Part shown: positions 1 through 58,453 of the stretch, piece by piece
Layout: each line of letters opens with the position of its first letter
Numbering within the stretch: position 1 is the first letter of the stretch
DNA from: Trichoplax sp. H2
Taxonomy: Eukaryota
NCBI GenBank assembly: GCA_003344405.1
Contig: NOWV01000156.1
Coordinates: 1-64,000 of the forward strand
Direction of reading: 5' to 3'
DNA: 64,000 nt
The notes under the pieces: generated by a model
Told to the model about the DNA's origin: nothing
Seen by the model: the letters and a program-made list of their open reading frames with translations, nothing else
Database searches by the model: none
Position numbers and translations under genes: made by a program

Positions 1-620
1 GGGCAAATTGTCTGGCGTGGAAATGAATCACTCCTGATGTCATGGAATTGATGATGTTGTAATAAATATTCCATTTGACCAATAACTTGAATGTATGGTA
101 TTATGTTAAACTTATTTTTAGAAGCATGGGCTAAAATATCTTTGACGTCGTCAATAGTATAACTATGAGGTGATCGAGCTAAACTCAAATTGCCTGCAAA
201 TGGGAAAGAATCATCATATTGTAGCATAACTGATTTGGCTCCAAAGTAGTTTAAATGGGCGAAAATCTTTCGTAGATAATTGATTTTCACCGGATCTTTG
301 CTCAAATCGAAATGGACAATTGGGCTTAGAGTATTCTTAGGCATACGAAAAGCAAGATACATCTCGTAGATAGTATCACGATAAACCCTTAAATCGTTTG
401 CCTTAATTTTATTTGTAGCTTGAGTATGATGGCTGGATACTATATAGCTTGGCAGATATCTTGATATATTGGAATAAACCCAAGTAGGTTCTGTTGTTAT
501 AATATTCAATCGATCATGATTACTCTTAAGACTGATAATCTGAATCCATGTCAAATGCAGAAATGTTATAATAATTACCGTCATCCATACACAACAATAT
601 CCTCTTCGAAACCAATGCAT
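1..620 (-). CDS. HEXD/HEXDC-like GH20 protein, copy A: 5' part, runs off the left window edge
   Basis: ATG at 620 on the minus strand opens an uninterrupted frame: MHWFRRGYCCVWMTVIIITFLHLTWIQII...PIVHFDLSKDPVKINYLRKIFAHLNYFGAKSVMLQYDDSFPF...IIPYIQVIGQMEYLLQHH...RQTICP. It is collinear with 29347..31017, and 1..~317 is near-identical to 30395..~30711. It is absent from the ORF track because it has no stop inside the window. Confidence 0.9.
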   Translation of the reverse strand, partial: MHWFRRGYCCVWMTVIIITFLHLTWIQIISLKSNHDRLNIITTEPTWVYSNISRYLPSYIVSSHHTQATNKIKANDLRVYRDTIYEMYLAFRMPKNTLSPIVHFDLSKDPVKINYLRKIFAHLNYFGAKSVMLQYDDSFPFAGNLSLARSPHSYTIDDVKDILAHASKNKFNIIPYIQVIGQMEYLLQHHQFHDIRSDSFPRQTIC

Positions 621-2671: not shown

Positions 2672-3484
2672 TTAAGCTTGCACGGTAACATGCAATACAT
2701 GCCAGTACAGATCGTTGACCAAGGTAGTGAGTGGTCGAACATGGCGATAACGCCATTCATCAATGCTATAATCATTATAAATTTCTTTAAACGCTATCTG
2801 AATTTCTTTATTCAAGCTTTTCAATGCTTGTCGAAGATACGTGAGTTCGTCAACCAGCAATGACTTATATAACTGATCACCAAGCAAGTATCGATTTTTG
2901 CCTAATTTAGCCATTACGTTAGAAACACGACTCTTCAAAACACGAAGTATAGACAGCAACCGATAACTTTGTCTGCCTGGCATTCGATCGCAAGTTTCAA
3001 TAGTGTAATCTTCCTTTAATTCAATTTGTAAATAGTCAATACATCGCAGTGCACAGACAGCAATTTCTGATGCAATATACATATGATATTCGCATGCCTT
3101 AAGAGTGTATACATTAAGTAGTAAGGAAGGAATACTCGCGGGTAAAATCTGACATGTAGGTAGAGAATAAGTTGGACGAGAGAAACCCATTAAAGAGATA
3201 CCTCCTACTTTTAAACCAGTTCTTTTTAAGCCGTTGGATAATCTAGCCCATGTGATCGTGTTACTTAGTCGCTTAACCGTTGGAACAAAGTTATCGTCGC
3301 ATTCTTCAGCACCTTTATATGCTGCGGCACCCCATATTTGATGAAATAATGATTTATACCTTTTCCACTGTGGCTGATCGAGGATATGAGTAACGTCGGG
3401 ATGAAAATCTAGAACCATTGGTTCTACTAAATCTTTCAGAGGTTCCATTTCGTTAGCTGTCATACTCCTTAAGCGATTATCCCA
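2672..3484 (-). CDS. HEXD/HEXDC-like GH20 protein, copy B: 3' half, 5' end lost in the assembly gap
   Basis: Open frame from the gap edge (WDNRLRSMTANEMEP...WGAAAYKG...LMGFSRPTYSLPTCQILP...HVTVQA*), collinear with the C-terminal half of 29347..31017. Confidence 0.9.
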   Translation of the reverse strand, partial: WDNRLRSMTANEMEPLKDLVEPMVLDFHPDVTHILDQPQWKRYKSLFHQIWGAAAYKGAEECDDNFVPTVKRLSNTITWARLSNGLKRTGLKVGGISLMGFSRPTYSLPTCQILPASIPSLLLNVYTLKACEYHMYIASEIAVCALRCIDYLQIELKEDYTIETCDRMPGRQSYRLLSILRVLKSRVSNVMAKLGKNRYLLGDQLYKSLLVDELTYLRQALKSLNKEIQIAFKEIYNDYSIDEWRYRHVRPLTTLVNDLYWHVLHVTVQA

Positions 3485-3504
3485 NNNNNNNNNNNNNNNN
3501 NNNN
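3485..3504. other. Assembly gap (20 N)
   Basis: Run of n. It falls inside the near-identical GH20 core, as expected for a repeat-induced contig break. Confidence 0.99.
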
Positions 3505-4161: not shown

Positions 4162-6100
4162 ATGACGGACCAGGATGTTCCTAACTTCCATTTACAGGAA
4201 GAAAAAATTTCATGTTGGGTAAGATAATGAACTAATTAAGCCTTGCACGACTGAAAAATGAAAGATAACATCGGCTATAATGAATAATTTTTTATTACAC
4301 AATACAAATATTTCCGCATATTTCATTTAGACATGCCTTCGACGTCAATTGGATGAATGGTGCTGTTATAAATCTGGTCACGATGACGTCTATATTAACA
4401 TTATGGAAGGGGGAAAATATCCATTCTCGGGAATGCCATATTATTCTATGCCCATGCTATCAGATTCGGTAAACTATTTAATGTAATTATAATACTGTTA
4501 ACATCAAGTTCTTTGAGGCTAATATTGAATCATCTCTTTCTTTATCTAATGTAAATTGTGCTGATGATTCTGGTTTTGAACATTGCTTATCCAGACTATA
4601 CAGCAGGCTTTAGATGTAGGCACCTGTAAACCTGGATATTATAGCACTACTTACCAGATAACAATTAGCGATGTCACATACGCATTTAAGAAATGGAACC
4701 CGCAGGTTACTTTTTCGATTAGGCTTCTATCTTAGTTATGGCTACAAGAATTTAAAATGAAGCGCTTCGATATCATATCTAAGCTACGATGCAATATCTT
4801 TTAGATGAAAGAATACTTAACGGACAAAAGATATACTTTTAAATATCTGCTAAGGTATTTCTAACACTTGCATCGATGAAGGTTAAGACTAATGATTAGA
4901 ATAGCAGCAGTAAATTGAATTTCATCTTTCCAACGTTAGCTTAAAACATGATAATCTACGGATGCTGCATTCATATCATCCATCTCTTGGAGGTCTATTG
5001 CTGGAATATCTACCGTTTTCGTTACGAGAGTTATTAATTACTTCGGTAATTTCAAACCCTCTCAATATTAATACAGTATACTAATGCAAATTTTCTGTAA
5101 CTAAATTGCTGATGTAGTGATAACTTTAAACTACCTCTAGGAAAGCACAGTACCTCGCTGTCTGCAAAGATTGATAATATTGAAGAACATTATCGATGGA
5201 TTAGCTTTTCTTCATGATTGCCAATTGGTCCATAATAATTTAACCAGGTAGATAGATTAGATCAAAGGTACAATTGCAGGATTACAAGAAATCCAACAGC
5301 TAACGTTGTTTGTGTAATTAGTAAGAATATTTTACTGGATGAAACGCTTAAAGCGAAATTAAGCGATGGATGTCTAGATTATAATCTTCACAAAATGAAC
5401 CTTGATAGAAGTACATTTCCTATCCCTTGCCATGTTGGAAAGATAGGATATAGCTGTCAGGATGCTCTAGCTGGAATAATTCGTAAATCCAATGATATAT
5501 ACAGCTTTGGGGCAGTAAGTGGTTGTTTTATAAGGTCTGCTGCATGTCCTTGTGTGGAAGCTATTGCTCTGTTCCTTGATACTCAGTTCATTTATCCATT
5601 TCAACAGATTTGTTTAGAAATAACTTCCGGACTGCAAGTGTTTGAAAAAGGCAGACGTCCACCATTGCTGGTATAATTAAAATACATCATGTTTTTTGAT
5701 ATAATACGGCAGTTATTTCGGCGAAGAGAGTGAAATGGAATAAAATGTTATTTTGTAGAAGGATTACTTGATTAGTTCCAGAAATCAAAACTGGAAAATG
5801 TTGAAGGATAAGAGAATATCGTGGAAAATGCAATGTACAAAGTCTACGTTCTGCCGACCAAGGAAAAAAATATTAGAGTTAGCAGTAGTTTGTTTATCCG
5901 ATATAGTAAGGCAAAGACCTGCTGTCATTCAAGTAAATATTTCAAATTTTATAAAAGTGCTTCCAAAGAAAATGTGATCCTAATTTAAGAGAGGATGTAA
6001 ATTTTCAATGTTCTTGTATTAGGTGCAGGAAAGGCTTGAAGCATTGATCGTCAAGAGTGTTAATGAATCATCCAAGTTGGAAAAATATGTACCAGTTTAA
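4162..6100 (+). CDS. IRAK/Pelle-like (TKL group) protein kinase-fold protein, probable pseudokinase; 10 exons
   Basis: Phase-compatible GT-AG exons 4162-4218, 4331-4468, 4595-4705, 4805-4854, 4940-5045, 5141-5247, 5322-5514, 5608-5670, 5759-5932, 6023-6100. The spliced product has kinase subdomains PGYYSTTY / YAFKK / LKHDNL / LLLEYLP / GLAFLHDCQLVHNNLTSKNILLDETLKAKLSDGC / GKIGY / NDIYSFGAICLEITSG / LAVVCL...RQRP...VQERLE. Confidence 0.85.
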
Positions 6101-7960: not shown

Positions 7961-8084
7961 CTCTGAAAACCCTCAAAATGATGCAATTGGATTATTTACA
8001 GGTTTCTTCTATCCAATCTAAAATGGTTGCCTGTGATCTAAAGTGCATTTGTCTTTAGAAATTTCAGCCACTAATTGAAATATT

Positions 8085-10004
8085 ATGGCCGAAGTTGATC
8101 TAAACACCTGTGTAGCATGGACACCAGATTTAACATTGAAGTTAATACATGATTTTCGCGAGCAGCCGCATCTATGGGATTTAAAGCATCCTTCCTACAC
8201 TGATCGAGAAAATAGAAAACATACTTGGGCTGATATTGGGACTAAACTAAACATAAGTCAAAGTGAAATAGAAAGAAAATGTCATACTTTACGTCTGAAA
8301 TTTTATCGTGAACGCCGAAAACTCTTGTTAGCTGATCAATATGGTATCGAAGATGGCAATCCCTCAACATCCGATTGGCAATATTATAAAGAATTGGAAT
8401 TTCTTACCGAGTTCTGTCAATCAGTAAAAGTAAGTCAATTCTGTCATAGCCTAACAACCTACCTAGCAGCACATCATTGCAAGACTTGTAAATCAAGTAG
8501 AACATAGCGTTCTACCAACTACTAACAGTAAAGCAATTTTATCATGCTATCAACCTAATCTATTGGTGTACTATTTCAGGATAATTTAATCGTGTATAGC
8601 ACAAATTTCTAATAGCTAGTAAGAGTAAAGCGATTATATCTCATTGTAGTTACTGTTAACAAAGGTTCTAAATCTGCAGATTACGATGTACTATTTCAAG
8701 ATTTGTTAATTGTGTAAAACACTCAATTTTATCCGCCAGTAGCGGTAAAGTGATTCTATCATGTAGTCCCTATTAACAGTGCTCGAAATCTACAAATTAC
8801 GAGATACTATTTCAAGATTAATTAATCGTATAGAACGCTAAATGCTACCAATCAGTAACAGTAGAACGAATCTTTCGTGCTACAAGCCTAAGACAGGAGT
8901 ATACTTATACTAGATTTGTTAATCGCGTAGATTTTATTTGATTATATCAATCAGGAACAGTAGCGTGATGTAATCACGCTAAAATTCTAAGATAGAGTAT
9001 ACTGTTAAAAGATTTGGTAACTGTATAAGACATCAAATTCTATCAATCAGTAACAATAGAGCGATTCTATCATGCTAAACTGTAAGATAGGGTATACTAT
9101 TTCAAAATTTGCTAATGCCTTGGAACACTGAATTCTATTCATCAGTAGTAGAGCGATTTTATCATGCTAAAACTCTAAGATAGACTATTCCTAAATTTTG
9201 TAATCTTGCAGAACATTAAGTTTACACATTTAATTTTTTAGACCGAAACGGAAAAAGGTGTTAAGGTATGAAAATTAATAATTAACTGTTAACGAACTCC
9301 GGTAGTATATGTGAATGATGCAATGTATTCAATTCAAAATTGTAGAAAGACTTAGAGGATTGTTCCCTCAATATTCCTGTCCAATCCTGTTCAATTAATA
9401 CTTTGGTAAGCAAGCATAAATCCTAGCCACTACCTTAGCCCTATATTTAATATTGCATATGATAAATTTTATTTTCAAATAATTAAAATAGTTTAATTAA
9501 TGAGCATCATCATGAATTATGCCATATAAATCTGTAGAAAAGCATGGAAGAAAGTAATAATTCCTTTAGCGAAGGGCCAGAAAATAATCATAGCATTGCA
9601 TGTAATGTAAGGACACTATGCGCAACTTAAATTACGGTTTATTTATGACCATTGCAAATTTAAATTTTAAATTATGTTGGAATTAGGACAATTCTATTGG
9701 CATAGTAAACGGACTCGAAAAGCCATGTGGAGTAACTATGAAGAGGAAAAGACTATCCTTACCTACTACAAATGTTGATGATCAACAGGAAGCTTGCCAA
9801 TCATTTCCTAACGTAAAAGACGCAAACATACAATATTACCTTCCAAAAGTAATTCAAATGGACCATATTGACTCATTCGGCCAATATGTAGCGGCGGAAA
9901 TGCACACATTCAAAAACAAAAGGTTACTGCAAGTTGTTAAGGATAAAATTTATGACATCCTTCGAAAGGCAAGATGCGATAAAGAAACCCTTTTGATGGA
10001 ATAA
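8085..10004 (+). CDS. MADF (Myb/SANT-like, Adf-1 type) transcription factor with C-terminal BESS-like motif; 5 coding exons
   Basis: Exons 8085-8429, 9242-9265, 9346-9405, 9538-9606, 9687-10004, all GT-AG and phase 0. MADF signature: LIHDFREQPHLWD...Y.DR..RK.TW..I...L...KCHTLRLKFYRERRK...WQYYKELEFL. C-terminal motif DHIDSFGQYVAAEM...IYDIL. Confidence 0.85.
8505..9215. repeat. Intronic degenerate tandem array, ~7 units of ~90-120 bp
   Basis: Recurring ttcta.caatcagtaacagtagagcgatt.tatcatgcta ... tactatttcaagattt.ttaat fills intron 1 of the MADF gene. Confidence 0.75.
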
Positions 10005-12903: not shown

Positions 12904-15900
12904 TTAAACTACAGTTTCTATGCAGTCACGTCTCAATAATTGAGATGATTTATGTAGCTGCGCATTTTTGGAAACTTGACAGTCATCAATATAAGACATT
13001 TCTTTAATATCTGACAAGTCACACTTTAACGCCTGGCTATATCTTTTTGCTGGCTTGATTTTACGATAGCTGCGATCAATCTGTTGTTCACGGATTATTT
13101 CTGCCGATAATACTTCACCAGCTCGATCTTCAGTAGATACCATACTACATCGAGGTTGATGACCAATACTGGAATTGCTTCCGGCTAAGTTAGCATTATC
13201 CGCGGGTGAATTGGATAATTTAAGTATCCTTGTTAGTCCGCCGAATACACTAACTGATAATCTATCTCCTCCTACGCTGCTATTTCGCTTTCGACTATCC
13301 ACTATTAATGAGGAGGCACGCGTTGATCGACTTTTCATACCAGTATTATGGGAAAGATTAGCGTTGGTAGCGCTGGATAATCGACGACGGCGATAAGAAC
13401 AGTTCAAATTCCATTTAGCAATGACATGATGTAAGTCTTTACGAAATAATTGATTAAAGATAGAGTAGAGGAATGGATTAGCGGTGGCATTAATGGGAAA
13501 AATAAATACTAATAGAAACTTGGCACTAGAAACTGTAATTAAATTCAATTTTAAGGCTGCACCAAAGCCAAAAAAAGCGATAGGCGTCCAACATGCAAAA
13601 TTAGTAAAGATTAATAATGCCATTCGTCTGGCAATACGACGATCCGCTTCCTGTGTTGCCCTATTCCCTCCACTGCTATGCGTTGAATGTACTGTATAGT
13701 ACATGACACAATAGCTATAGACAATCAAGATGAAAGCTAATGCGTTAATGCCGACTAATATCAGAATATAACCTACCGACATGGAACTTGTAAAATCAGC
13801 TGGTAAGCAGATACATATTAATGAATAACTATTCACTCCAACAATTGGTAATAGTGCCAGTACAATCGATAAAATCCAACAAATTGACATTGCAATACAT
13901 GCACCAAATAGTTTTAACTGCTTCTCATAATACATTGCATGGACGATGGCTAAATAGCGCTCGATAGTAATAACCGTTAATGTCATCGTAGATAATTCTG
14001 CCGAGAAAATAGCAATAAATCCAGCAGTAGCACAACCACCACCAGTTTGCCAATTGATGGCATAATTAGCATATTGATTTGCTGTTGTTAGATCAGTGAT
14101 AGCCATCAAAGCTAAATAGATCCCCATGCAAAAATCTGCAAAAGCTAAATTGCAAATTAGAAATTTAGTAACTGTTAGATGGCCTTCTGCATTGAGTATC
14201 ACCATCAAGACTAAAGTATTGGCTAAAAGGGATATAAAACACATGATCCATTCTGATATTTTAAGGTACCAATCGCCCAACATATCTTCACATGGCGTTA
14301 ATTCATTGGGTTGAGGCAAGCATTGAACTAATTTTAACCCACCATAACCATCAAGGCAATCCGCTTGATCTGGTGTACAATTGAAATGGCTAGAATTTGT
14401 ATTCCATTGATGAAGATCGGTAATGTTGCCATCGACCGTTGTTTTATTGCCAGAAAATCCTCCGCCACCTTGATTAATAATGCCAGTATCGCCTTTTGTA
14501 GGCGTAAAAAGTGTTGGAAATAGAAATTCTCCAAATGTTGCAGCTTGACTTGCTGTAGATTGTGCCCTACGTTTCGATAGGACATGGTTTTTTGATTTAT
14601 AATCGCTTACTTCGTCATCATCATGGTATCCTCTTTCATCATAATCTTCATCATTATTATTGACAGGTGATCTTATTGCTTGCATTGCGTCGACTTTTGT
14701 TGTTGGATTCTCCTTTCTAGGTTGCGGCCGTAGATTGCTACTTTGGAATTGCTTTAAGCGTTCTTCGGTTTGATGGCGATGGAATATACAACATAAATAG
14801 GGATAATGAACTTGAATTTTTTGAACTTGAGGAATCTGCTGAGGTAAAGGTAATCGCTTGAATGCTTCAGCCTTTGCACGGAGTTGGCGAAGACTTTTGA
14901 GTCCATTTTTTGAAAAGTCTTTTGGATTATTAGGTACCGGTAAATATTCCAAATCAGTTTTGGTAATGTCTCTGTAAAAGGATATAAAGAGTTCTATTTA
15001 TATTAGTATAGAAGTGCTTATGGTGTTATTATATTATATAATTGAAAACGTCGAATTTATTAAAACAAGGTTTAGACATTTATTATAATCTTACAACGAT
15101 ATCAATCCAATCGATGATGGATTTAAATGCTCAAAGGCTTTAGCATGCATCTCTTTTAGAGGATTATTCGCTAAATTGCTGTAAATTGTTATGGAAAGAT
15201 TGTTCTTAGCGTTCATTTTTTTATCATAATTGCTGAAATTAGCATGGTCCAACTTACATAGTTATCCCGTAAGCCCCTCCGGTGTTATTAAAAACAAATT
15301 CCTGGATTTTGCTGATTTTATTGCTGTCCAATTGACTAATAAATGGTTAAAAGAGTAAACATGATAGAATATCTATAAGAATTCAATTTTTAACGTAGGA
15401 AAAGATGTACTATAGTATGAATTTTTACAATAGGATCTTACATATTGTTGATCTTTAATAAATTATGAAACGAATTTTCAGGTATAGTCGCTATTTTACT
15501 TCCTCGGATAATTCTAGAATTTTATTTAAACCAAAAATAAATATAATCAACATGTAAATGATATTATATTATCATAATTGGAAATAATTGCAAGCAAAAT
15601 AGTTCGAAATATGATTGAAGAATCTAAACTTTATTGTGATGACAGAAAAAATTCTTGATATGATATTGATATCGGGCGAAGAGATTAGTACAACAGTACT
15701 ACCTACTTTGCAATGGTAATACTAGAAATAGCAAGTACAGCGTTATAAATTTAGCAGTGAGATTAAATTATTATTTTAGTATCATAAGACTGCAGCCGCT
15801 ACTTAATTAGCAAGCCATGTACTAGAGTTTAGAAATGATTGTATCGGGTAAATAGGGAGTAATAAGTGGTAGATACTGTTATAACTTGAATTAAATTTCA

Positions 15901-29346: not shown

Positions 29347-31017
29347 CTATGGCTGTAAAATAATGCGCGTATGTAACATATGCCAGTAAAAGTCATCTAT
29401 TAAATTTTTGAGAGGTCGAATATGACGATAATGCCATTCTTCGATAGTGTGATTATAGTAGACTTCCTTAAATGCTAGTCGAGTTTCCCTATTTAGGCTT
29501 TTTAACGCACTCTGAAGGTAGATTAATTCGTCTATTACTAATACCTTGTACTGCTGATTACCAAGAAGATTTCGATTATTGCCTAGTTTGGCAAACAAGT
29601 TAGAAATACGACTTTTTAATACCCGAAGTATGGATAATAATCGATAGCTCTGACGAGCTGGCATTCGACTACATGTTTCGACTGTGTAGTCTTCAGTTAG
29701 CTCTACATGAAAGTAGTCATTGCATCTCAAGGTACAAATAGCAGCTTCACTATTAACATATTTATGGTATGCATTAACTCTAACAGCTAGGGCCATAAGC
29801 AAAAGAGTAGGAATACTCGCGGGTAAAATCTGACATGTAGGTAGAGAATAAGTTGGACGAGAGAAACCCATTAAAGAGATACCTCCTACTTTTAAACCAG
29901 TTCTTCTTAAGCCGTCGAGTAATCTAGCCCATGTGATCGTGTTACTTAGTCGCTTAACCGTTGGAACAAAGTTATCGTCGCATTCTTCAGCACCTTTATA
30001 TGCTGTGGCACCCCATATTTGATGAAATAATGATTTATACCTTTTCCACTGTGGCTGATCGAGGATATGAGTAACGTCGGGATGAAAATCTAGAACCATT
30101 GGTTCTACTAAATCTTTCAGAGGTTCCATTTCGTTAGCTGTCATACTCCTTAAGCGATTATCCCATATTAAGATAATCATTTCTGGAAAATGTTGCTTGA
30201 TATATTTACATATCTTAACAATATATTCGACATAAACTTGATTTTCATTTAAATGTTGGCCTTTGCAACGATTACAAGTTAAACGTGAATTATAAAAGTC
30301 ATGACCGCCGATATGAATAGCTTTAGCGTTCTTATGTAAATCCATAATTTGTCGTATTATCTCTTTTATAATAGTAACACTTCGATTACTACATGGGCAA
30401 ATTGTCTGGCGTGGAAATGAATCACTCCTGATGTCATGGAATTGATGATGTTGTAATAAATATTCCATTTGACCAATAACTTGAATGTATGGTATTATGT
30501 TTAACTTACTTTTAGAAGCATGAGCTATAATATCTTTGACGTCGTCAATAGTATAACTATGAGGTGATCGAGCTAAACTCAAATTGCCTGCAAATGGGAA
30601 AGAATCATCATACTGTAGCATAACTGATTTGGCTCCAAAGTAGTTTAAATGGGCGAAAATCTTTCGTAGATAATTGATTTTCACCGGATCTTTGCTTAAA
30701 TCGAAATGGACGATAGGACTTAATTTACGTTTGAATGACGGTATACCGATAAACATCTCGTAGATAATATCACGATAGACTCTTAAATCGCTTACTTTAA
30801 TCGTATTCTTACTCTGCACTCCATGATCCTTAGTTAATATATAGTCCGGTTGAAATATCGACTCATTGGAGTAAATCCACGTATCCAGATCTGCTTTAAA
30901 ACTCGTTACATCATCTATTTCTTTAACATTGATAATCTGAATCCATGCAAAATGCAGAAATGTTATAATTATTACCACCATCCATACCGCGCCATGCCCT
31001 CTTCGAAATCTCTGCAT
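29347..31017 (-). CDS. HEXD/HEXDC-like GH20 hexosaminidase-fold protein, copy C: complete, intronless, N-terminal signal anchor, probably catalytically inactive
   Basis: 556 aa ORF. Basic N-terminus followed by hydrophobic VWMVVIIITFLHFAWIQII. HEXD-type motifs IVHFDL..., QYDDSFPF.GNL, IIPYIQVIGQME, IHIGGHDF, IWDNRLR, WGATAYKG, CQILP. Confidence 0.92.
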   Translation of the reverse strand: MQRFRRGHGAVWMVVIIITFLHFAWIQIINVKEIDDVTSFKADLDTWIYSNESIFQPDYILTKDHGVQSKNTIKVSDLRVYRDIIYEMFIGIPSFKRKLSPIVHFDLSKDPVKINYLRKIFAHLNYFGAKSVMLQYDDSFPFAGNLSLARSPHSYTIDDVKDIIAHASKSKLNIIPYIQVIGQMEYLLQHHQFHDIRSDSFPRQTICPCSNRSVTIIKEIIRQIMDLHKNAKAIHIGGHDFYNSRLTCNRCKGQHLNENQVYVEYIVKICKYIKQHFPEMIILIWDNRLRSMTANEMEPLKDLVEPMVLDFHPDVTHILDQPQWKRYKSLFHQIWGATAYKGAEECDDNFVPTVKRLSNTITWARLLDGLRRTGLKVGGISLMGFSRPTYSLPTCQILPASIPTLLLMALAVRVNAYHKYVNSEAAICTLRCNDYFHVELTEDYTVETCSRMPARQSYRLLSILRVLKSRISNLFAKLGNNRNLLGNQQYKVLVIDELIYLQSALKSLNRETRLAFKEVYYNHTIEEWHYRHIRPLKNLIDDFYWHMLHTRIILQP

Positions 31018-31989
31018 ATTGGCAATGATGATAAATGGATGTAATAATCACCTTGAAAGATAACTTAACGGAGATACCAAGATGAGCATTCTATTGCTGT
31101 CTACTAAAGTAGTTGTTTTGGTAGACTCAGAGAACAGCACTGACCAACCTTTTCTTCTTCTCCACACGAGTTCCAGTTGGATGGGATAATATATAATAAT
31201 AATCAATAATAAGTGGTTAGGGCGTTCAGCGCTTTCATCTTTCCCTAAGGCTTGTAACTTTTACAGTACAACGTACAGTACTTGCAGGCTTAGAAAGCTC
31301 ATCAACTTACAGTACAGTACTGTAGAGTGAGTGTGTTCAAGTCAAAATCACTTGACCCAAATTGGTGCTACAGTGAAAACCAAGCCATTGTACAGTACAA
31401 TGTACCCCTGAATGTACAGTACACCGTTTTTAGTCAAGTACGAACGGTGCTGACAATCAACTAGTCCAGATAGAGACCGTTGCCGGTCCAGTACCACCAC
31501 CTTAGTGACGTCAGCCCCTACCGATACGGTACACTGTACTGTACTGTACTACAGTAAGAGTACTGTAACTGTCACTGTATTGCATTGTAGCGACCGAACC
31601 TTCGACAGGTGTACTGTACTGTAGGTCTAGGTACAGTATGCCCAGGCCCTATAAATCATAACGGTTCGAACCGAACCAAACCGAACCTTTCTCAGGTCTA
31701 GTCCGGGATACTGGTCCATCAACTGGTCCAGATAGAGACCCTTGTCGGTCCAGTACCACCGCCATAGTGACGTCACTGCATTGCATTGTGCTGTGTTGTC
31801 GACTGTTCATTGTTCCGATACTGGTTAACAGTCGACAATACAGTATAGCTACAATGCATGCAGTGACGTCACTAGGGTGGTGGTACTGGACCGCCAACGG
31901 TCTCCATCTGGACCAGTTGATTAGCAGCCTAAGCTTGAGGCGGTAAAGGGACCCATGGTATGAGGAAAGCCTTAGTGGCCTTGGTTAAA
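31018..31989. promoter_or_regulatory. Probable bidirectional promoter region between the HEXD-like gene (-) and PCMT1 (+)
   Basis: Divergent start codons 972 bp apart. Locally GC/CpG-richer than the surroundings. Contains three TGACGTCA (CRE) palindromes at 31506, 31768 and 31864, plus TACTG tracts. Confidence 0.65.
31456..31921. repeat. Three copies of a ~70 bp element (two direct, one inverted); copies 2 and 3 form a ~200 bp foldback (MITE-like)
   Basis: atcaact.gtccagat.gagacc.ttg.cggtccagtaccacc.c..tagtgacgtca at 31456-31513 and 31718-31789, with the reverse complement at 31851-31921. Inner arms 31791-31807 and 31827-31843 extend the stem. Confidence 0.88.
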
Positions 31990-35943: not shown

Positions 35944-37683
35944 TCAAGATAAATTGGATTGGCGGCAATCACTATGTGAGCTTCTACTTACTCCCGCCTC
36001 ACCATATATTGGCATATAAAATTTATGTTTAACTTGTTTATAAATTAATAATACAATTACTAAAATTATCGGCAGACCAAATGTAACAGATATACCGATG
36101 GCTTCAATTGGTACTACAGCATTACCACAAGTTGCTTGACTATTCTTGCGACATGGAATGTAATTATAGCCTACTTGTGACAAACTAGGAATATCAGTGA
36201 GGTATTGATAGGCTGAATTACAACATGGATCTTTGCAAGTAGATTGATACCCACAATCGCATTCTTCGCCTTCATCAATAATTCCATTGCCGCATAGAGG
36301 ATAATACGCTTGTGTTAAACATGGCCTTAACTGATCAATTTTTAAGATTAAATTTTGCTTAATTTCACTTCGACTACAAGTAGAAAAATGAAAATTGTTC
36401 CTTTTACTACCATCAACTAGTTTTTCATACATTACGTAATTGCCTTGATGATTATTAGGCGAACAACTTGATCCATTAGTATCATGCAAAGAACCAAATA
36501 AATGACCAATTTCATGAGCGATAGCAATTTCACGTGTTGCAAATGGAATGACATGATTTCGATCATTGATTGAAACAACAGCAACATTAGAACTAGCTAC
36601 ATGATGATCTTGATTAACGTAATAACCGGTACAGATACCTTCATTAGCCTTAAAGCCACTATTAGCCATTCCTAGGACATCTTTATCAAACTTTTGGCCA
36701 GTTAAATAAAGAGCTAAGCAAGAATCTGAATAATTCTTAGCCACAGTCAGTCGATTAAAGAATTCCACTGGATTATTAATTTTCGATAATATGTTTGAAG
36801 TTGTAGTGACTGTAGTTGATATTGTTGTAGAATTGAGATTGATACCAATCAACTCATCAGATAATCCAAACGTTAAATTTTTAATGGCTATACCAATTCC
36901 ATCTGCTTTGCCATCTTGATCAAAGTCAGTACGTCGATAAAGATGATTAACTCTTTGTACTAAAATAGCAACATCAGAAATAACATAAGCAAAGTTATTA
37001 TGATAATGCTGTAAAAATGTTCTATCGATATCAATATGAGCTAAGCACGTAGTATCATTCATAAGCAATGAAGTGATCTGATTATTTTGATTGATACTAG
37101 AAGTAGAAGTGGATGAAGCCGTTTGTTGATTATTCCCATCATTAGTATTGATTACTGATTTCTGCGAACCAATATCAATATCACGATAAATAAAGTACTG
37201 TTGCTCATCACTCCATTGATTGGCATATAATCCAATCCATTCTACGTAATAAACTGTTTGATTGGTATAAAATACGCCATGATAGCTACTCATTTCATCG
37301 ACATAACCATATGCATAAGAATGATCATCATCTTGTAAAGTTCCAGATACAAGGCGAAAACGATCAAACTGGCCAAAAAGGCCCGTTTCGCTTTCCTTAT
37401 CCACATTAGCTTCATTAATGAAAACTTTAGAATCAGTTTTTAAACTAAGTTTAAAGGTTGCATTAAAAGCATCAAATTGAATATGGATAGATTGTCCAGC
37501 TTGAATATTATCTAGTGGTTTATTGGAGAATTGGATAAATTGATAATATTTCAAATGTTCTAATTGAGGTGCCGAGGATTGCAATGATAACATTAAATTT
37601 AACCTTTGGCATTGTACTCTTGAGATAGAACATAGAAGAAGGATTGTAAAGCTGAATCGGTACAATGGGATTATAATAGCCAT
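35944..37683 (-). CDS. ADAM10/ADAM17-like membrane metalloprotease, intronless, truncated disintegrin region
   Basis: 579 aa. Signal peptide, prodomain, reprolysin domain with HEIGHLFGSLHD and Met-turn (GNYVMY, FSTCS), disintegrin start CGNGIIDEGEECDCG, TM helix IGISVTFGLPIILVIVLLIY, short tail. Confidence 0.93.
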   Translation of the reverse strand: MAIIIPLYRFSFTILLLCSISRVQCQRLNLMLSLQSSAPQLEHLKYYQFIQFSNKPLDNIQAGQSIHIQFDAFNATFKLSLKTDSKVFINEANVDKESETGLFGQFDRFRLVSGTLQDDDHSYAYGYVDEMSSYHGVFYTNQTVYYVEWIGLYANQWSDEQQYFIYRDIDIGSQKSVINTNDGNNQQTASSTSTSSINQNNQITSLLMNDTTCLAHIDIDRTFLQHYHNNFAYVISDVAILVQRVNHLYRRTDFDQDGKADGIGIAIKNLTFGLSDELIGINLNSTTISTTVTTTSNILSKINNPVEFFNRLTVAKNYSDSCLALYLTGQKFDKDVLGMANSGFKANEGICTGYYVNQDHHVASSNVAVVSINDRNHVIPFATREIAIAHEIGHLFGSLHDTNGSSCSPNNHQGNYVMYEKLVDGSKRNNFHFSTCSRSEIKQNLILKIDQLRPCLTQAYYPLCGNGIIDEGEECDCGYQSTCKDPCCNSAYQYLTDIPSLSQVGYNYIPCRKNSQATCGNAVVPIEAIGISVTFGLPIILVIVLLIYKQVKHKFYMPIYGEAGVSRSSHSDCRQSNLS

Positions 37684-40600
37684 ATTGGTAAAATTGCGTT
37701 AGCTTTAACACCAAATTGTGTTCAAAAGAAAAGAAGCTTACGGTTTAATATTTATCTTGCCTTGTATTAAACAAAATAGCTGAAGTAATTCAACATTTAA
37801 TTAGTATATAGTAACATATATATATATTACGCAAGTTTGAGGTATAATTGTATCATATGAAGCCGCATATAATGTTGAAATGACCTTTTAAATAGGCTAA
37901 TATCGTATATGGTGATTTTATTGTCGTATTTTTTGAAGAAGAAACTGCTCAACTTGGTTTGCAATCGTTAAATTTCATTAATCTCTTATTTGGCTTGATT
38001 TATAATAAAGCAGATCTTTCTAGTCAATATCAGCTAGAGAGAGGAACGTCTAGCTTTATGGGATGTACTAATTAGAAGCCAAATACATTAAAAATACTTT
38101 TATGCCCCAGTTAATCGGACTACCCCAGTAGAAGGCATTAGGTGTTATTTACCATACACTATGAAATCTAGGTGTTTTCTATAAATTCAATATCATTCAC
38201 GGCTTTAGTTCCAATAAATGTCTTTTCCGCGTTTCCAAAAATTAGATCAGAGTCTATGCACTGGTTTTAATAATTTTTACTTGCTAAAGTACTTCGTTAA
38301 CCATAATTGGCCTGCAAATCGCAAACAATAAGATGCAGAAATCTAGAAAGGTCAAATATGAAAAAGAGCATTTATTAGAAAAATATTGATCTAACTGAAC
38401 ACTTACTGCTTTCATGTAATCGACATTTTTGCTTTAATATTCTATTAGTTAGCGCCAATTGCATTATGAAATTAGAGAAGTAGTGATGTAACGTAGTATA
38501 TCAATTAAAAATATATTTTATAACATATCAACATTGGGCATTCACAAATGACGCTAGAGAAAATGAGCTAGATTAGGATAAATCATTGGAATTTCGGAAA
38601 TTATTTTAGGAGTAGAGAGCATTTCGATAATACTTTTAATTTACATTTTTATGAAATTTTTCTCTAGTTAATACAGTAACCCTAGTAGACAGGTTGATGC
38701 CTTTGTCAACAGTTTACTTGATCAAAATATATCCCATACCGCGCTGTCTGTACATACTGTTAGACTGATTGATTTTCCTTTATAAGGTCTACCAAATGAA
38801 GTAATGTTAGATATTTAAGTAAATAAGGGCAAATAATAAAATAACAGGCCTATATAATACTATCAAATACTTATGGAATAACAAGATATCTGTAGCGGAT
38901 TTGGCGCAAACTAAATAATTGTAATATAAAAGCTTTAACTGGACTCTTAAAATACTTGGAGTCGAAAATTATTTTTGGATGTTCCATTACTATAGCATGA
39001 ACATTACTATCATTATTATCGTCACAAATTTCTCTATAAGTACGTATTCAATAGCGAAATTTTATTGCGATATTATTAATCGTAGAAAGAAAAACTGAGG
39101 AAAGAAAACGATGGAAATATCCATAAAAGAACAGGACAGCTAATTAATCTCCTAAAATCAAAATACATAATAATTTACGGAGTTAAAGTAAATATTCACA
39201 ATCATTTATCGTTAACCTTCGAAGGAATATTAAAAATAAAACAAATGTACTCGTATCATCGCGTAATGGAAGCCAAGTTAGTATCAATGATTTGTAAAGC
39301 TAGTGATGATACTATAAAGTTAGAGTAATCATATAACTTCGTGTTAGTGAGGTCTATGTACGTACTACTCGCGTTTCGTTCCATCAATAGTTGACTAAGA
39401 ATTTAAAACATTTTTGAGTTTCAAAAAATAACTCTCATAATGTACTATAGCAAAATACAGTCGGGTACCTTGATTAAAAAGGCATCATTAGTATCCGTTG
39501 CCTATGATTAAGCTGTTTTAATCAATGGTAGATTATTTAAATCATCTCTAGATATAACGAAAATGATGGATATTATAGCAATAAACTATAGGCAACGTAA
39601 ATTATAGACTAGAGAATAAGTTTATTAATTGAAATTGGTATAATTTGCTGTACTGTTATTCTCTTAAGACTAAAAGATGTGCATTATTAAAAGCAAGCTT
39701 ACGCATATTATTATAATATTTTCCACGGAAATTGATACTTTCAGTTTGTATTAAATTATTTTCGCTGTAGATCTGATATTGCTGGAATATTCATGGGCTA
39801 CAAATTATAAATCGATATCTACATCCTAATTGTTGTTATTCATACACTTGAGAAAGGAATTCAAAGATCATTTTAAAATATCATGGGCACGCTATTCACA
39901 ACTAGGAATAATTTAAAGATTTAAAGAACAGGAATTTTATGAAGCCAGCTGTGTAAAAAATCCTTGCTTAAAAAAAATCGATAAAGTAAGTGATATCTCT
40001 TGCAAAGATATTCAGGTATTTCATGACAAATCATCACCAGCGCTAAGCTATTTTATCAAAATATCTATAATGATTAATAAAGTTGATGATGACGAATGAA
40101 TTCGTCATGATATAATAAAAATTGGCAAACTTTATGATGAATAGTGCAATTTTGGCGTTAGGATAGAAAAAATCAAGCGCAAACCTGAATGTTGTTAACA
40201 CTATAATGAACTGTCTTGTCCTAAAGCAAATTATGTTTTGTGATAGTCTTAATGATCCCGTATCAAAGTTTAATGTGGATCAATTTAATGCTACAAGAAA
40301 AATGGAAAATCACTCTTATACACGCCAAGCATACACGTAAAGACATCAAAGCTAGCAAGCGGAAACCATTAAATCCAATTTCTACTTCTCTATTAGTTGC
40401 GTACAATGATCAAAACAGGTTCTACTAAAGTAGTTCCTTGTCTTTATACCAAATTTACTATATCAGCTTATTATGATATTAAATTAAAGTAGAATGATGC
40501 TAGTTCCGTATATGTTAGTGATGCTACTAATTAGCCTAATTATGCCAATTACATCCGACCAGTTTATCTATTGTTACCGGCTGTTTACTATGTCATCTAG

Positions 40601-53565: not shown

Positions 53566-53585
53566 NNNNNNNNNNNNNNNNNNNN
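53566..53585. other. Assembly gap (20 N)
   Basis: Run of n. Confidence 0.99.
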
Positions 53586-53669: not shown

Positions 53670-54110
53670 GTGTACAGTGTACAGTACATTCCAGTATCAG
53701 TGTACTGTACGTACCGTACTACGTACTGTACTGTACAGTACAGTATGTACAGTGCATGTTGCGTACAGTACAGTACTAGGGACTTGTCATTGATAAATCA
53801 TACTGTACTCTACTGTACAGTACTGTACTGTACAGTGTACAGTACCTTAAAAATGGTCAAATTTCAAAATTGTAATAAAGAGAGACTACGATTTTGAAAT
53901 TTGACCATTTTTTGGGTATGATTTATCATTGAGAAGCCCCTGACTCTCTTTATGGCGATCTTGAAATTTGACCATATTTGGGGCATGATTTATCATTGAG
54001 AAGTCGCTGATAGTAGAGTACAAATAAAATGTGATGGTGATGGATAGACTTTTATTACGGTACCGCTGTACTCTGCAGTCATTTTGCAACGTCTAGTACA
54101 GTACAGTACC
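53670..54110. repeat. Repeat-rich mini-contig: TACTG/CAGTA tracts plus ~67 bp satellite-like units in opposite orientations
   Basis: Units cgat.ttgaaatttgaccat.ttt.gg.atgatttatcattgagaag start at 53889 and 53956. An inverted unit spans 53779-53886 and is interrupted by a TACTG tract. Confidence 0.82.
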
Positions 54111-54138: not shown

Positions 54139-54158
54139 NNNNNNNNNNNNNNNNNNNN
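54139..54158. other. Assembly gap (20 N)
   Basis: Run of n. Confidence 0.99.
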
Positions 54159-56224
54159 GTAGCCCTTGCAACATCATACTTATCTAAAACTTGGACAGTG
54201 ATTCCGTCCTAGAAATCTATCTTGTAGTTGTACTGGAAGATTTGGACGTTTGCAACTATTGTATTCATATTTGAAGTAATTTTACAAATACTTGCGGCTT
54301 CCATTTTATCTTCACCATATTATTATACCCATATATTATTATACTGTATGAGGAATAAAAGAACTCTTATACAGTTTTAATGCCTTAAGCAAAATTACTT
54401 ATGAAAAGGTACAGTATTGCTTACTGCCACGAAGGTGCATTTTTATGAGAATGAAATCGGATTAAAGCGTTGAATTACTAGCATATAGAATTATAAATTG
54501 AATGGAAACTATATCATTCCACAATAGTTTGTAACTGTAAGTTTTAAGTTTAATTACTTTTAAAATATCACGTGCTCGAATCAACACCAGGGGAGTAAAG
54601 ATGATGTCGTTTCTTATGTGCAATCTTACCGGCAGTTTTATACATTTCCGTAGACCTTAAGACCAACTAACGATATTTCTTGCATCAGAAATACCACTTA
54701 TTCCGCTATTTTTCCGTGAATTAAGCGATAAATCAACAGGATTAGTAAATTGATAGGTTTACTTATTGTATTACATGCAATCTAAAAGATAATAAGTTTA
54801 GATCATCAACATATTAGTCTAGCTATTGATAAAATTAATGAAAGTGGCGTCGATCGAATTACCGTTAGGGTTAATCAATGACTGCTTTCAATTATCTGTA
54901 ATATCATGTCCAGCATCTGATCTTACAATAAATTATCAATGGTTCAAACAGAGAAATTTCATTTATTTTATCTCATAACTGCCGTATATTACGTTTAATC
55001 ATACAGTTTGTAGAATCATGGAAGAAGTTAAAATAACTCTTCTTACTTTATCTGTCTTAATTGATGGCCTTTTTTACTTCTAATTCCCGACATTGACGAA
55101 GATAACGTTCAGATTTGCCAAAAACTACAGCATTTATGACCTCTTAATTATCATGTCATTATTTGTTTGGTGAACATCAAAGAGAGTGATTTTGAATAAT
55201 CAGCTAATTAATGTTAGCATAACAAAATAAATAGGAAAAATACTTAATACAACTACCATTAACGTTTGTATTGAGAGCGTTCCACTTTAACAATAGATAA
55301 TTAGCCACCAAAGATAGATAACATTATAATAGTTATAATTAGCTATTGTACCTATTACGGTTAGTAAAATTACATAAGCTCAAGTTCTGCCTCTATCTGT
55401 TTAAAAATTATTTAAGAGTTGTTTATTGACATAGATCTTTTTCCAAACTACAGAGGAAGCGGTTAGGTACTACGTGTTAAGGATTGAGCTATTTATTAGA
55501 GTAAATAAAGCTACTGTAGGAAAAGTTATCAACGTGACTTAGAAAACAGAATTGATCTAATCGTATTAATAACGATCAAATGTAAGTCATTAGCCTTAAA
55601 AATGATGTCAATTTAACCAATCTATCGTCTACAGATGTTCAATTTAATAAGGCTGTTTATATAATTTATTTCTTGTCATGTAAGATTTGATAGTCAATAC
55701 CGTAATTGATTCCACCTGATTTTGATTTGTAATGATATTGTTTCCTTATTTCTTAGCACGATTTGAATATTATGCTAAATATACACCGTAATAAGATTGA
55801 TTCATAATTAATCTTTCATCTTCATCATTGACCAATAAAATTGACTGGTCATCGTAACAATATAGTAACATTTCATTTCAATTGCATTTTGTTATCCATG
55901 CTGACCTCTAGATTATTTTTTCTTTTCATAGTAACCGTCAATATTATTACCTAAAACGGTTGCATTAAACTGGTAAACAAGTAATTACCCTCTTGGTGGT
56001 GAGACGTCATTTTATTTTTCTCTATTTTAGCATCAATTTGATGGAAATAAGCATTCTGTTTACTTTGCATTGATAGCATAATAATATTAATAAATATATT
56101 AATAACATACGAAAATTTATTTGGGATACTATTAATAAGAAGGAAAATTGCAGGGACAGCTATTTTCACATTTCATCAATCTGCTCCTGTTTAACTAAAA
56201 TTTTCATATCCAAGTTTTGATGAT

Positions 56225-58453
56225 ATGGCCAAAATGGTTATAAACTCCATATTCATCGTAATCACAGTACTCACTCTTATTTCAAGCCATGGCATTACAG
56301 GTTATCCTGCACGACCTGATTTTATGCCAATCGATAAGCAGTTGCGATATTATGAAGTTATTACATTTCCAAAGATCAATAATCGACCACAACAAATCGA
56401 ATCAACATGGGTAACCATTAACTTTACGGCTTATCAACAACAGTTTATTCTAAAGTGCACCACTGACCGTACATTATATTCCTCTGATTTTGACATCATT
56501 TATAGTAATGGAAGTAATTACAACGACGATAAATTCAATCGACGTCGCCTTGTTACTGGATTTGTCGCTGATAATGTTATGTCCAATGTATATGGCTATC
56601 TACATGTTAATGGGGCGTTTCAGGGTCACATTCGTTACAATCGGACACACTATTTTATTGAGCCTGCTGAACTTTACTTTTCAAATGTATCTACTGATCA
56701 ATTTATCATTTATGCATTAAATGATGTGATATCGCTTAAAAATTTAACTTCTAAAAATGATGAAGAGACAACAGGTAGAAGTTCAAGATCGATTTCGAAT
56801 AATGCTAATAAATATTTCGATATATTAAGACCAAATCCGGATAATCGACTACAATTTGATGATGAATTCATAGATCATGAACGTATAAAACGGACTGCTA
56901 ATGCAGCTAGTGCACCGATGGCGTGCGATATTTTGATTCATGTAGATCATACCTATACAGAATTACATCGCACTCCATCAAATGTGGCCATTTCTGTCAG
57001 TATCTTATTACAAGGAATTAATCAGTTGTATCGTCCAATTGATTTCGACGGTAACGGTCGTGGCGATGGGGTTAACGTTTTATTCGGACGGTTAAAAATT
57101 AACACAACTAGCGATCGCTACGCTAGCAATAATCCTTATTCCGGAATTATTGGCTCATCAGTTGACTATATCTTAGCCGCTTCTGCTGAAAATAACACCG
57201 ATTATTGCTTATTTTTTGCTTTATCAGCTCGAAATTTCAGCGGAGGTGCATTGGGAATTGCATTCCAAAGTCCAACTCCAGGTGATGCTGGTGTTTGTTC
57301 CTATTTTGGTACTTTCTTTCATTTGAGGCTTGGATTTAATACCGGGATTGTAAGTAATTTATTCCGTAGGCATATTATGCCCTATGCACGCTTACTTTTA
57401 GTCTGGGCTCATGAAATTGGACATTCTTATGGTGCTGACCATGATCCTGCAGATAATGCAACTTGCAGCCCAAAAAAGCAAGGCTTGTACTTAATGACGG
57501 CAAAATCAGAATCGATCGATTTACCTAATAATGATGAATTCTCGATATGCAGCAAGTCTCAGATTGCACCTCACTTAGTTCGTGGTAAGTCATCAGTTGG
57601 CTGTTTTAAACATCATCCCGTACCTACATGTGGTAACGGAATCATCGATCCTGGTGAAGAATGCGATTGTGGTTACTACGGACATTGCAATCAGCCTTGT
57701 TGTAACCCACCCTATCTTCGCATCCAGGATACACCTTATACTCAACCTAATGGATTTCTGTATGTTCCTTGCAAACTTAAATCAACTATTTCCTGCAATA
57801 TTACTAGCAATCCATGCTATAACAATGCTACAGGAATGTACTACAGTACGAAAGATAAGTACATTTGTATTCCAGAAACAGCTTGTACTTATGCATCACA
57901 TTGTACCGGCAATCAACTTTTATCAACTTGTCTACCAGCTCAAAATAAGCCCAATATCATAACAACATGTCTTGATGATTATAAAGTCTGCCTAAATGGT
58001 CACTGTAATGGTTCATTATGTTTGCAACATGGTTATAGTCAGTGTAAGAGCTCCAATATTAGCAGAGATTGTGAATTATGCTGTCAAGACTCTCTCGGTC
58101 AATGCTCAGCCATATCAGAACTAGCCAAATTCACCAATACCAGTCGAAAGCATGTCCTACGAGGTTCAGCATGTTCCCATTCGAAAGGTTATTGCGATCA
58201 AAAAGGCCGCTGTCACCTTGTTCTCAATCCAACTTTTAGCTATGGTCAATCATTTCTAGCAGTATCAGCAACTTTTGGAGCTATTATAACCCAATTTTTA
58301 TCTAATTATTACTGGATTCCAATTGTTATTCTAGCGATGTTTTTTCTTATAGGGGTAATCTACTTTTGGAAAAAAAGTCAGAGCAAAGCTAATGATGACA
58401 AATTTTACCAAAACGGAGGTTATCATAGCTATACCAAATCAGTAGCCTTGTAA
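56225..58453 (+). CDS. ADAM17/ADAM10-like membrane metalloprotease, intronless, full domain set
   Basis: 742 aa. Signal peptide, prodomain, furin site RIKR, HEIGHSYGADHDP plus Met-turn (YLMT, FSICS), disintegrin CGNGIIDPGEECDCG, Cys-rich domain CELCC...GYCDQKGRC, TM YWIPIVILAMFFLIGVIYF, short tail. Confidence 0.95.
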   Translation: MAKMVINSIFIVITVLTLISSHGITGYPARPDFMPIDKQLRYYEVITFPKINNRPQQIESTWVTINFTAYQQQFILKCTTDRTLYSSDFDIIYSNGSNYNDDKFNRRRLVTGFVADNVMSNVYGYLHVNGAFQGHIRYNRTHYFIEPAELYFSNVSTDQFIIYALNDVISLKNLTSKNDEETTGRSSRSISNNANKYFDILRPNPDNRLQFDDEFIDHERIKRTANAASAPMACDILIHVDHTYTELHRTPSNVAISVSILLQGINQLYRPIDFDGNGRGDGVNVLFGRLKINTTSDRYASNNPYSGIIGSSVDYILAASAENNTDYCLFFALSARNFSGGALGIAFQSPTPGDAGVCSYFGTFFHLRLGFNTGIVSNLFRRHIMPYARLLLVWAHEIGHSYGADHDPADNATCSPKKQGLYLMTAKSESIDLPNNDEFSICSKSQIAPHLVRGKSSVGCFKHHPVPTCGNGIIDPGEECDCGYYGHCNQPCCNPPYLRIQDTPYTQPNGFLYVPCKLKSTISCNITSNPCYNNATGMYYSTKDKYICIPETACTYASHCTGNQLLSTCLPAQNKPNIITTCLDDYKVCLNGHCNGSLCLQHGYSQCKSSNISRDCELCCQDSLGQCSAISELAKFTNTSRKHVLRGSACSHSKGYCDQKGRCHLVLNPTFSYGQSFLAVSATFGAIITQFLSNYYWIPIVILAMFFLIGVIYFWKKSQSKANDDKFYQNGGYHSYTKSVAL

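Follow-up and report, generated by a model that had tools for sequence, protein, structure and literature searches.

What becomes of a glycosidase that has lost the residues with which it cuts? The question is raised by a gene of Trichoplax sp. H2 that lies within the first 64,000 nucleotides of contig NOWV01000156.1 (assembly GCA_003344405.1), a stretch analysed here in full and referred to below as the window. The gene, which we call the main copy or copy C, occupies positions 29347..31017 of the minus strand and encodes a homologue of the hexosaminidases of glycoside hydrolase family 20 (GH20), the textbook case of substrate-assisted catalysis. In its product the catalytic Asp–Glu pair is replaced by His–Asp, and most of the residues aligned with the sugar contacts of a solved relative have changed. 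We consider it probable that the gene encodes a selected pseudo-hexosaminidase, that is, a type II protein of the secretory pathway with a remodelled pocket, non-catalytic and no longer able to remove N-acetylhexosamine (HexNAc).

The main copy is an intact, single-exon open reading frame (ORF) of 556 amino acids (aa) running from ATG to stop, and no other ORF of 80 aa or more is present between positions 28000 and 32500. With an average G+C content of about 31%, the 64 kb of the window contain only nine frames of 120 aa or longer that are free of stops, so a frame of 556 codons is not a product of chance. The 300 nt on either side, read for obvious expression signals, yielded none that could be used, the DNA being too A+T-rich. 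An earlier reading of these letters, called here the original prediction, had proposed an intact 556 aa ORF of HEXD type, and both the ORF listing and the family searches described below bear it out.

Family and predicted fold

The main copy is a homologue of GH20 subfamily 1, the group of HEXD and nematode HEX-2. It matches the Pfam GH20 domain PF00728 at 32.2 bits (cutoff 22.3), and its sole strong match among PDB sequences is 8qk1_A (expectation value (E) 1.4e-51, over aa 101–539). This structure, HEX-2 of Trichuris suis, is the best solved relative and falls into subfamily 1 together with the Caenorhabditis elegans HEX-2 to HEX-5 group; unlike what we propose for the Trichoplax protein, HEX-2 is an active enzyme that removes N-acetylgalactosamine (GalNAc) and N-acetylglucosamine (GlcNAc), and the identity between the two is only about 23–30%. 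When 1.84 billion representative sequences were searched exhaustively with HMMER, 1612 relatives appeared at E<=1e-3, of which 221 reached E<=1e-30. Apart from copy A, a paralogue in the window that is treated below (database protein P0002), the closest of them is P0003, a beta-N-acetylhexosaminidase of Darwinula stevensoni, at 29% identity. In best local alignments P0003 shares 35–48% identity with named hexosaminidase D and HEXD-like proteins of arthropods, molluscs, cnidarians and vertebrates, which belong to the same sequence family as the main copy; the ceiling for the main copy with any relative lies between 33% (alignment columns) and 35% (matched stretches). Word-indexed searches for near and for shorter homologues found the protein itself and copy A only, and the ESM Atlas, in which no structure of this protein is deposited, gave look-alikes at family level only, in clusters annotated as ‘hexosaminidase D-like’.

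The AlphaFold2 model, for which an alignment with 120 relatives was supplied (predicted local distance difference test (pLDDT) 85.8, predicted template modelling score (pTM) 0.82), places a barrel at about aa 101–404, with helices continuing to aa 553. The best Foldseek hit of the model is again 8qk1 (E 3e-32, template modelling score by target (TMt) 0.90), followed at E of about 2e-15 by GcnA of Streptococcus gordonii (2EPO) and GH20C of S. pneumoniae (5A6K). These two share the arrangement of a barrel plus a helical C-terminal domain (score by query (TMq) 0.60–0.67) but differ in being active bacterial enzymes of 10–12% identity without a membrane anchor. The order of barrel and helical bundle found in HEX-2, GcnA and GH20C is present in the predicted model. 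The TIM barrel, delimited by the strands and helices of the model and by DNA identity between the copies, spans aa 101–404 (29806..30717, minus strand) and coincides with the tract homogenised between copies; the C-terminal helical bundle, aa 405–556 (29350..29805, minus strand; model helices 455–553), is diverged between them. The assignment of the ORF to HEXD/GcnA-type GH20 was thus right, as judged from PF00728, 8qk1_A, the HEXD-named relatives and Foldseek.

The catalytic motif and the sugar-contacting residues

The hallmark His/Asn-x-Gly-x-Asp-Glu of GH20 is absent from the main copy, where the codons CAT ATC GGC GGT CAT GAC at 30315..30298 of the minus strand encode HIGGHD (aa 235–240), exactly the change from HIGxDE that had been read at 30298..30315. 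Two independent PDB alignments, with 8qk1_A and with 7pul_A (the GH20 domain of EndoE), place H239 and D240 opposite the Asp–Glu pair, and alignment to subfamily-1 relatives confirmed that the pair is replaced. When 150 of the matches were aligned with the protein by MAFFT, 149 of them covered the site; the HEXD-type relatives keep Asp–Glu in 140 cases, nine carry another pair, and copy A does not reach the position. The His–Asp pair is found in the Trichoplax protein alone, and neither His at 239 nor Asp at 240 occurs in any of the 120 relatives retained for the analyses below.

Other family motifs have changed as well. Against the consensus of these 120 relatives, VHLDLKGAPP reads VHFDLSKDPV, EYEDMFPY reads QYDDSFPF, FGHLEF reads IGQMEY, IWDDM reads IWDNR, VWxY reads VLDF, GWQRYDH reads GFSRPTY and CELLP reads CQILP. 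All of these alterations had been listed in the original prediction; its GHME motif is indeed changed, although the consensus spelling is GHLE, with GHME present in P0049 at least.

Nine HEX-2 residues are predicted to bind GalNAc or GlcNAc (Table 2 of PMC11308363). Their counterparts in the main copy were counted by hand along the 8qk1_A sequence alignment. K66, which contacts O3, corresponds to S108; D198 (N2) and E199 (O1) correspond to H239 and D240; W246 and W272, both at the N-acetyl group, to W285 and L309; Y274 (O7) to F311; W348 (sugar ring) to F385; G305, which contacts O6/O4 by its main chain, to G342; and Y351 (O6) to P388. Seven of the nine HexNAc contacts are therefore changed, and those kept are one Trp (W285) and the main-chain Gly (G342). 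Only one of the four aromatic residues that form the cage in HEX-2 (W246, W272, Y274 and W348) is kept, the relatives having Trp, Tyr and Trp at the three altered positions in 116, 116 and 114 of 120 cases, respectively. The basic residue that contacts O3/O4 (K66 in HEX-2, R94 in GH20C) is aligned with S108, at which 117 of the 120 relatives have Lys; the adjacent residue is K109, where 116 have Gly.

These observations bear on the possibility that the protein is a lectin, which would have kept the ancestral HexNAc pocket without cutting, as chitinase-like lectins do. The altered catalytic pair in a preserved fold, together with the conservation of W285 and G342 in the -1 subsite, is consistent with such a role, but of the four aromatic residues three are among the seven changed contacts, and so is the Lys that binds O3. 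With the residues that would grip the acetamido group and O3 lost, the protein is unlikely to be a lectin for terminal HexNAc, and we regard this explanation as quite improbable. The suggestion that the protein is a glycan binder with a retained HexNAc pocket is correspondingly disfavoured.

Extent of change against the family

Is the altered pocket simply what would be expected of a fast-evolving member of the family? The question was addressed with an alignment of the protein and 120 of the 150 matches; copy A and 29 others were left out, the 29 being picked by eye (later, shorter or multi-stretch matches) with no consideration of the motif. Among the 120 relatives, 87 columns are at least 80% conserved, and the main copy keeps 53 of them and differs at 34. 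Defined on all 121 rows, the conserved columns number 86; the main copy differs at 33, whereas the relatives differ at 6.7 on average (median 6, maximum 22). Over the 390 variable columns its mean identity is 0.197, the fourth lowest in a family that reaches down to 0.180 and has a median of 0.235. For a protein of this identity, a regression fitted to the relatives gives an expectation of 11.4 changes at conserved columns, leaving a residual of z = 6.0 for the main copy, with the next at 3.0. Since 33 of 86 conserved columns are changed while divergence at the variable columns stays within the family range, the loss is concentrated on the residues that define the family. The systematic replacement of the active site that had been proposed is thus supported by the contacts, the conserved columns and the regression alike.

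Besides the sugar contacts of Table 2, nine polar positions conserved in more than 89% of the relatives are changed (E135Q, E137D, H183Q, K189Q, E198S, H265Y, D287N, H390Y and E396Q), as is D389T, conserved in 99 of 120. This list was chosen where the main copy differs, so that it displays a pattern and provides no test of it; by sequence comparison, the conserved polar positions of the barrel are generally de-charged. Four cysteines common in the family are retained, namely C207 (97 of 120 relatives), C248 (93), C251 (94) and C395 (113). HEX-2 carries a structural Zn2+ near its pocket (PMC11308363); to connect the retained cysteines with such an ion would be no more than a guess.

Could the protein nevertheless still be a glycosidase that works with a variant pair? 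D240 would then serve as acid/base and H239 would orient or deprotonate the participating group, with changed specificity, or a different chemistry would operate on the new His, Asp and Glu residues. There is precedent for other pairs, as GH84 O-GlcNAcases use an Asp–Asp pair in the same substrate-assisted mechanism and the GH3 enzyme NagZ has an Asp–His dyad. The acid/base position still carries an acid (D240), W285, H235, G237, R387, K341 and D138 are all kept, and the -1 subsite loops, whose ranges were taken from HEX-2 (PMC11308363), contain the unusual residues D310, H312, E344, E345, D347 and D348 at positions that are mostly small or neutral in the relatives. Against this, the grip on HexNAc appears to be removed by the Tyr-to-Phe change at the acetamido O7, the Trp-to-Leu and Trp-to-Phe changes at the acetamido and ring walls and the Lys-to-Ser change at O3; ten more near-invariant polar residues are neutralised; and neither new residue of the pair has a counterpart among the 120 relatives. 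We consider a working enzyme of either kind unlikely.

Membrane anchor

Residues 1–10 include three Arg and are followed by a hydrophobic segment at aa 11–29 (30931..30987, minus strand), with a Kyte–Doolittle mean of 2.29 over the 19 residues from aa 11; in the AlphaFold2 model an N-terminal helix covers aa 5–29. The N-terminus is thus short and basic, a single hydrophobic stretch of about 19 residues follows, and most of the protein lies C-terminal to it, as in proteins with a type II signal anchor. The topology was deduced by the positive-inside rule from the sequence. Four N-x-S/T sequons and ten cysteines are present, every one of them beyond the anchor. Hydropathy and the model helix thus both agree with the type II signal anchor that had been predicted.

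The significance given to this anchor in the original prediction, a departure from soluble HEXD, did not hold. Mammalian HEXD is nucleocytoplasmic, while HEX-2 of T. suis possesses an N-terminal cytoplasmic tail, a transmembrane segment and a stem, followed by a TIM barrel and a helical bundle (PMC11308363); the predicted layout of the Trichoplax protein is the same. Of the 120 relatives, 79 begin with Met and extend for 40 aa or more ahead of the barrel, and 60 of these carry an N-terminal hydrophobic segment, defined as a Kyte–Doolittle value of at least 1.6 with its start within the first 80 aa. Judged from these sequences, the anchor is a common state of the subfamily and no novelty, and the mammalian protein was the wrong comparator.

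Paralogous copies, gene conversion and selection

Two partial paralogues lie near the start of the window, both on the minus strand. Copy A (3..620) comprises the N-terminal 206 aa of a paralogue (75% identity by tblastn to aa 1–207 of the main copy); it ends at the window start and is identical to P0002, a database protein of 206 aa that ends at the same residue. Copy B (2672..3484) comprises the C-terminal 270 aa of another paralogue and its stop (77% by tblastn to aa 285–552). A 20-N assembly gap at 3485..3504 cuts copy B inside the homogenised tract, and its upstream part is lost. Because copy A lies downstream of copy B on the minus strand, the two are, as assembled, parts of two genes. 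Both assembly breaks lie in the barrel repeat, on which the assembly appears to break; the other 20-N gaps of the window are at 53566–53585 and 54139–54158. The ‘expanded family’ of the original prediction therefore stands for the three loci in the window, and no further members were found in the protein collections.

The copies resemble each other very unevenly. The number of identical nucleotides per 60-nt block is 36–47 between aa 1–100 of the main copy and copy A, rises to 56–60 over aa 101–207 against copy A and aa 285–404 against copy B, and falls to 29–44 from aa 405 onwards against copy B. The 912-nt barrel tract is thus about 98% identical between copies, with flanks at 60–70%, and the proportion of synonymous differences (pS) is 0–0.1 within aa 101–404 and 0.5–0.95 outside. 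The simplest reading of these values would be that the copies are old paralogues in which the barrel has been homogenised by gene conversion, over a tract that coincides almost exactly with the domain. As had been pointed out, substitutions of the main copy recur in the visible parts of copies A and B. However, all of these shared changes fall within the homogenised tract, so they count as one observation, not three; they are not independent evidence, and the HIGGHD site itself is covered by neither copy.

Signs of selection were therefore sought outside the barrel. For the C-terminal bundle, copies B and C differ with a pS of 0.81 and a proportion of non-synonymous differences (pN) of 0.23, giving a pN/pS of 0.28 (bootstrap 0.21–0.37; none of 1000 replicates at or above 1). 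For the N-terminal 100 aa the ratio is 0.59 (bootstrap 0.39–0.86; 5 of 1000 at or above 1). These values indicate purifying selection on the flanks. Within the barrel, copy A differs from the main copy by five synonymous and three non-synonymous changes and copy B by one and six, too few to read, and the ratio of non-synonymous to synonymous rates (dN/dS) is uninformative there because the tract has been homogenised by conversion. A comparison of dN/dS among the paralogues, as envisaged in the original prediction, is thus informative for the flanks and silent on the barrel.

The same data bear on whether these genes are merely decaying, functionless duplicates whose altered site reflects relaxed constraint. 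Such decay could account for the long end branch of the protein in the family tree (1.37 against a median of 0.67), for the lack of orthologues in the protein collections searched and for the excess of non-synonymous barrel differences between copies B and C (six versus one). It sits poorly with an ORF of 556 codons that has stayed intact in a window where only nine frames are free of stops for 120 aa or more, with flank ratios of 0.28 and 0.59 for which none and five, respectively, of 1000 bootstrap replicates reach 1, and with the retention of the structural cysteines. Decay is, in our judgement, very improbable.

A short repeat also occurs upstream of two of the copies. The 9-mer GTACTGTAC is found 27 times in the window against 0.28 expected, a count reached in none of 100 shuffles. 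It is clustered at 1254–1402, 31273–31619 and 53679–54109, with single sites at 12870, 42162 and 52341. The first cluster lies about 630–780 bp from the ATG of copy A and the second about 260–600 bp from that of the main copy, each on the upstream side; the third is flanked by two assembly gaps and is situated about 2.1–2.5 kb upstream of an ADAM10-like gene. Tandem Repeats Finder (TRF) reported short ACTGTAC arrays at the clusters. The 9-mer could belong to a microsatellite-like repeat that is dispersed in the DNA, or else to an upstream element that genes have in common.

Other relatives without the Asp–Glu pair

The main copy is not the only subfamily member to lack the canonical pair. Nine relatives (P0015, P0017, P0074, P0077, P0079, P0085, P0108, P0122 and P0128) carry other residues at the site: NE twice, and GE, QQ, GG, AG, GR, DA and DQ once each. 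Several of them differ at 15–22 of the 86 conserved columns, and an N-terminal hydrophobic segment is found in seven of the nine. On a FastTree phylogeny of 121 rows, the ten rows lacking Asp–Glu, the main copy included, require at least eight state changes, which suggests that loss of the pair recurs in the subfamily. Pseudo-HEXD proteins may thus be a recurrent, undescribed phenomenon, of which the main copy is, by its sequence, the most extreme case.

The end branch of the main copy is the second longest of the 121. The protein joins P0122 and, when this is removed, P0077; both lack the Asp–Glu pair and both groupings are flagged as long-branch joins. We claim no sister group, since the placement is unstable.

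Interpretation

We propose the following account. The gene descends from animal GH20 subfamily-1 hexosaminidases of the HEXD and nematode HEX-2 type. The fold, as modelled, the conserved cysteines and the anchor–stem layout have been kept, the apparatus of substrate-assisted catalysis and the greater part of the -1 subsite for HexNAc have been lost, and the gene is maintained by purifying selection, as measured on the flanks. At least three nearby copies exist, their barrels kept near-identical, most simply by conversion, and their stems and C-terminal bundles deeply diverged. The product would reside in the secretory pathway, probably in a Golgi-type location, with the barrel in the lumen, and, to judge from its residues, would have given up beta-N-acetylhexosaminidase activity. 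Its role there would instead be non-catalytic, in binding, scaffolding or regulation, and would be exercised through its remodelled, largely de-charged pocket and through stem and bundle surfaces specific to each paralogue. The altered residues are more easily reconciled with a protein that scaffolds or regulates glycan processing, or that binds another ligand, than with a lectin for terminal HexNAc.

Such a protein would have counterparts in other families. GH18 chitinase-like lectins and GH1 Klotho have kept a glycosidase fold under selection with the catalytic acid replaced, and by analogy the Trichoplax protein would work most like these pseudo-glycosidases. The GH18 chi-lectins keep their sugar-binding aromatic residues and a pocket that is largely intact; unlike them, the main copy has a remodelled pocket, the ancestral sugar site being changed at seven of nine positions. 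Two features of a pseudoenzyme are found here: the protein derives from a family of enzymes but has other residues at the catalytic positions, and its ORF is intact, with purifying selection between paralogues, in this case on the flanks. Full-text searches of the open-access literature yielded no description of a natural GH20 pseudoenzyme, and term searches in PMC2492878 came upon no mention of such a protein.

Several observations weigh against this account. The altered catalytic motif is seen in the main copy only, as copies A and B stop short of the site, and selection is measurable only on the flanks, conversion having erased its signal in the barrel. Neither HMMER nor the word-indexed near and shorter searches found an orthologue with the same substitutions in the protein collections. 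The structural model rests on an alignment of active relatives, so that its confidence in the fold is not independent support. As regards the pocket, K109 might stand in for the lost Lys by a shift of one residue from S108, and the acid D240 at the acid/base position (Glu to Asp), with W285 kept, makes some glycosidase chemistry conceivable.

A more radical version starts from the same unusual residues. Instead of being inactivated, the barrel may have acquired a novel site, catalytic or metal-binding, for which H239–D240, D310, H312 and the acidic loop E344/E345/D347/D348, set in the de-charged pocket, are candidates. Conversion would keep this site identical in at least three paralogues while their stems and bundles diversify and direct its chemistry or ligand binding toward different partners. 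We offer this as a speculative and rather improbable scenario. We otherwise retain the pseudo-hexosaminidase as the probable nature of the main copy.

Neighbouring genes

Other families are represented in the window as well. Two long single-frame ORFs, at 35944..37698 (minus strand) and 56195..58453 (plus strand), measuring 584 and 752 aa from stop to stop, encode ADAM10-like reprolysin metalloproteases with signal-like N-termini, intact zinc motifs of the HExxGHxxGxxHD type and hydrophobic segments at the C-terminal end. In the second there is, in addition, a match to the Cys-rich domain of ADAM10, and the two are a diverged pair of paralogues. An uninterrupted open frame of 697 aa at 12904..14997 (minus strand, stop to stop) matches the rhodopsin-family seven-transmembrane (7TM) domain PF00001 (E 1.9e-35, aa 260–511); this receptor has about 250 aa ahead of the 7TM domain and a Ser-rich C-terminal tail. 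A frame of 142 aa at 8079..8507 (plus strand) contains a MADF DNA-binding domain (PF10545, E 3.8e-18).

At 5141..5676 (plus strand) two adjoining frames resemble the C-lobe of a protein kinase, with an HNNL-type sequence in place of the customary HRDL and a DIYSFG-like stretch. A Pfam search with 5239..5676 gave no match at E<=0.001. The region could thus belong, as one exon, to a gene for a kinase or pseudokinase. Rfam and tRNA scans detected no RNA gene in the window.

Implications

Members of GH20 subfamily 1 shape the N-glycans of invertebrates, while the role of mammalian HEXD is still unclear (PMC11308363). If the interpretation preferred here is true, the Trichoplax gene would represent, as far as full-text searches of the open-access literature could show, the first natural GH20 pseudoenzyme lineage to be described. 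With a homogenised barrel between old and diverged flanks, the copies in the window would also provide a neat case of gene conversion limited to one domain. A rebuilt barrel, should that improbable scenario prove correct, would give a GH20-fold protein with a mechanism that is not substrate-assisted, or with a ligand other than HexNAc. More generally, a GH20 protein kept by selection without its Asp–Glu pair or its acetamido cage would show what other capacities this barrel has.

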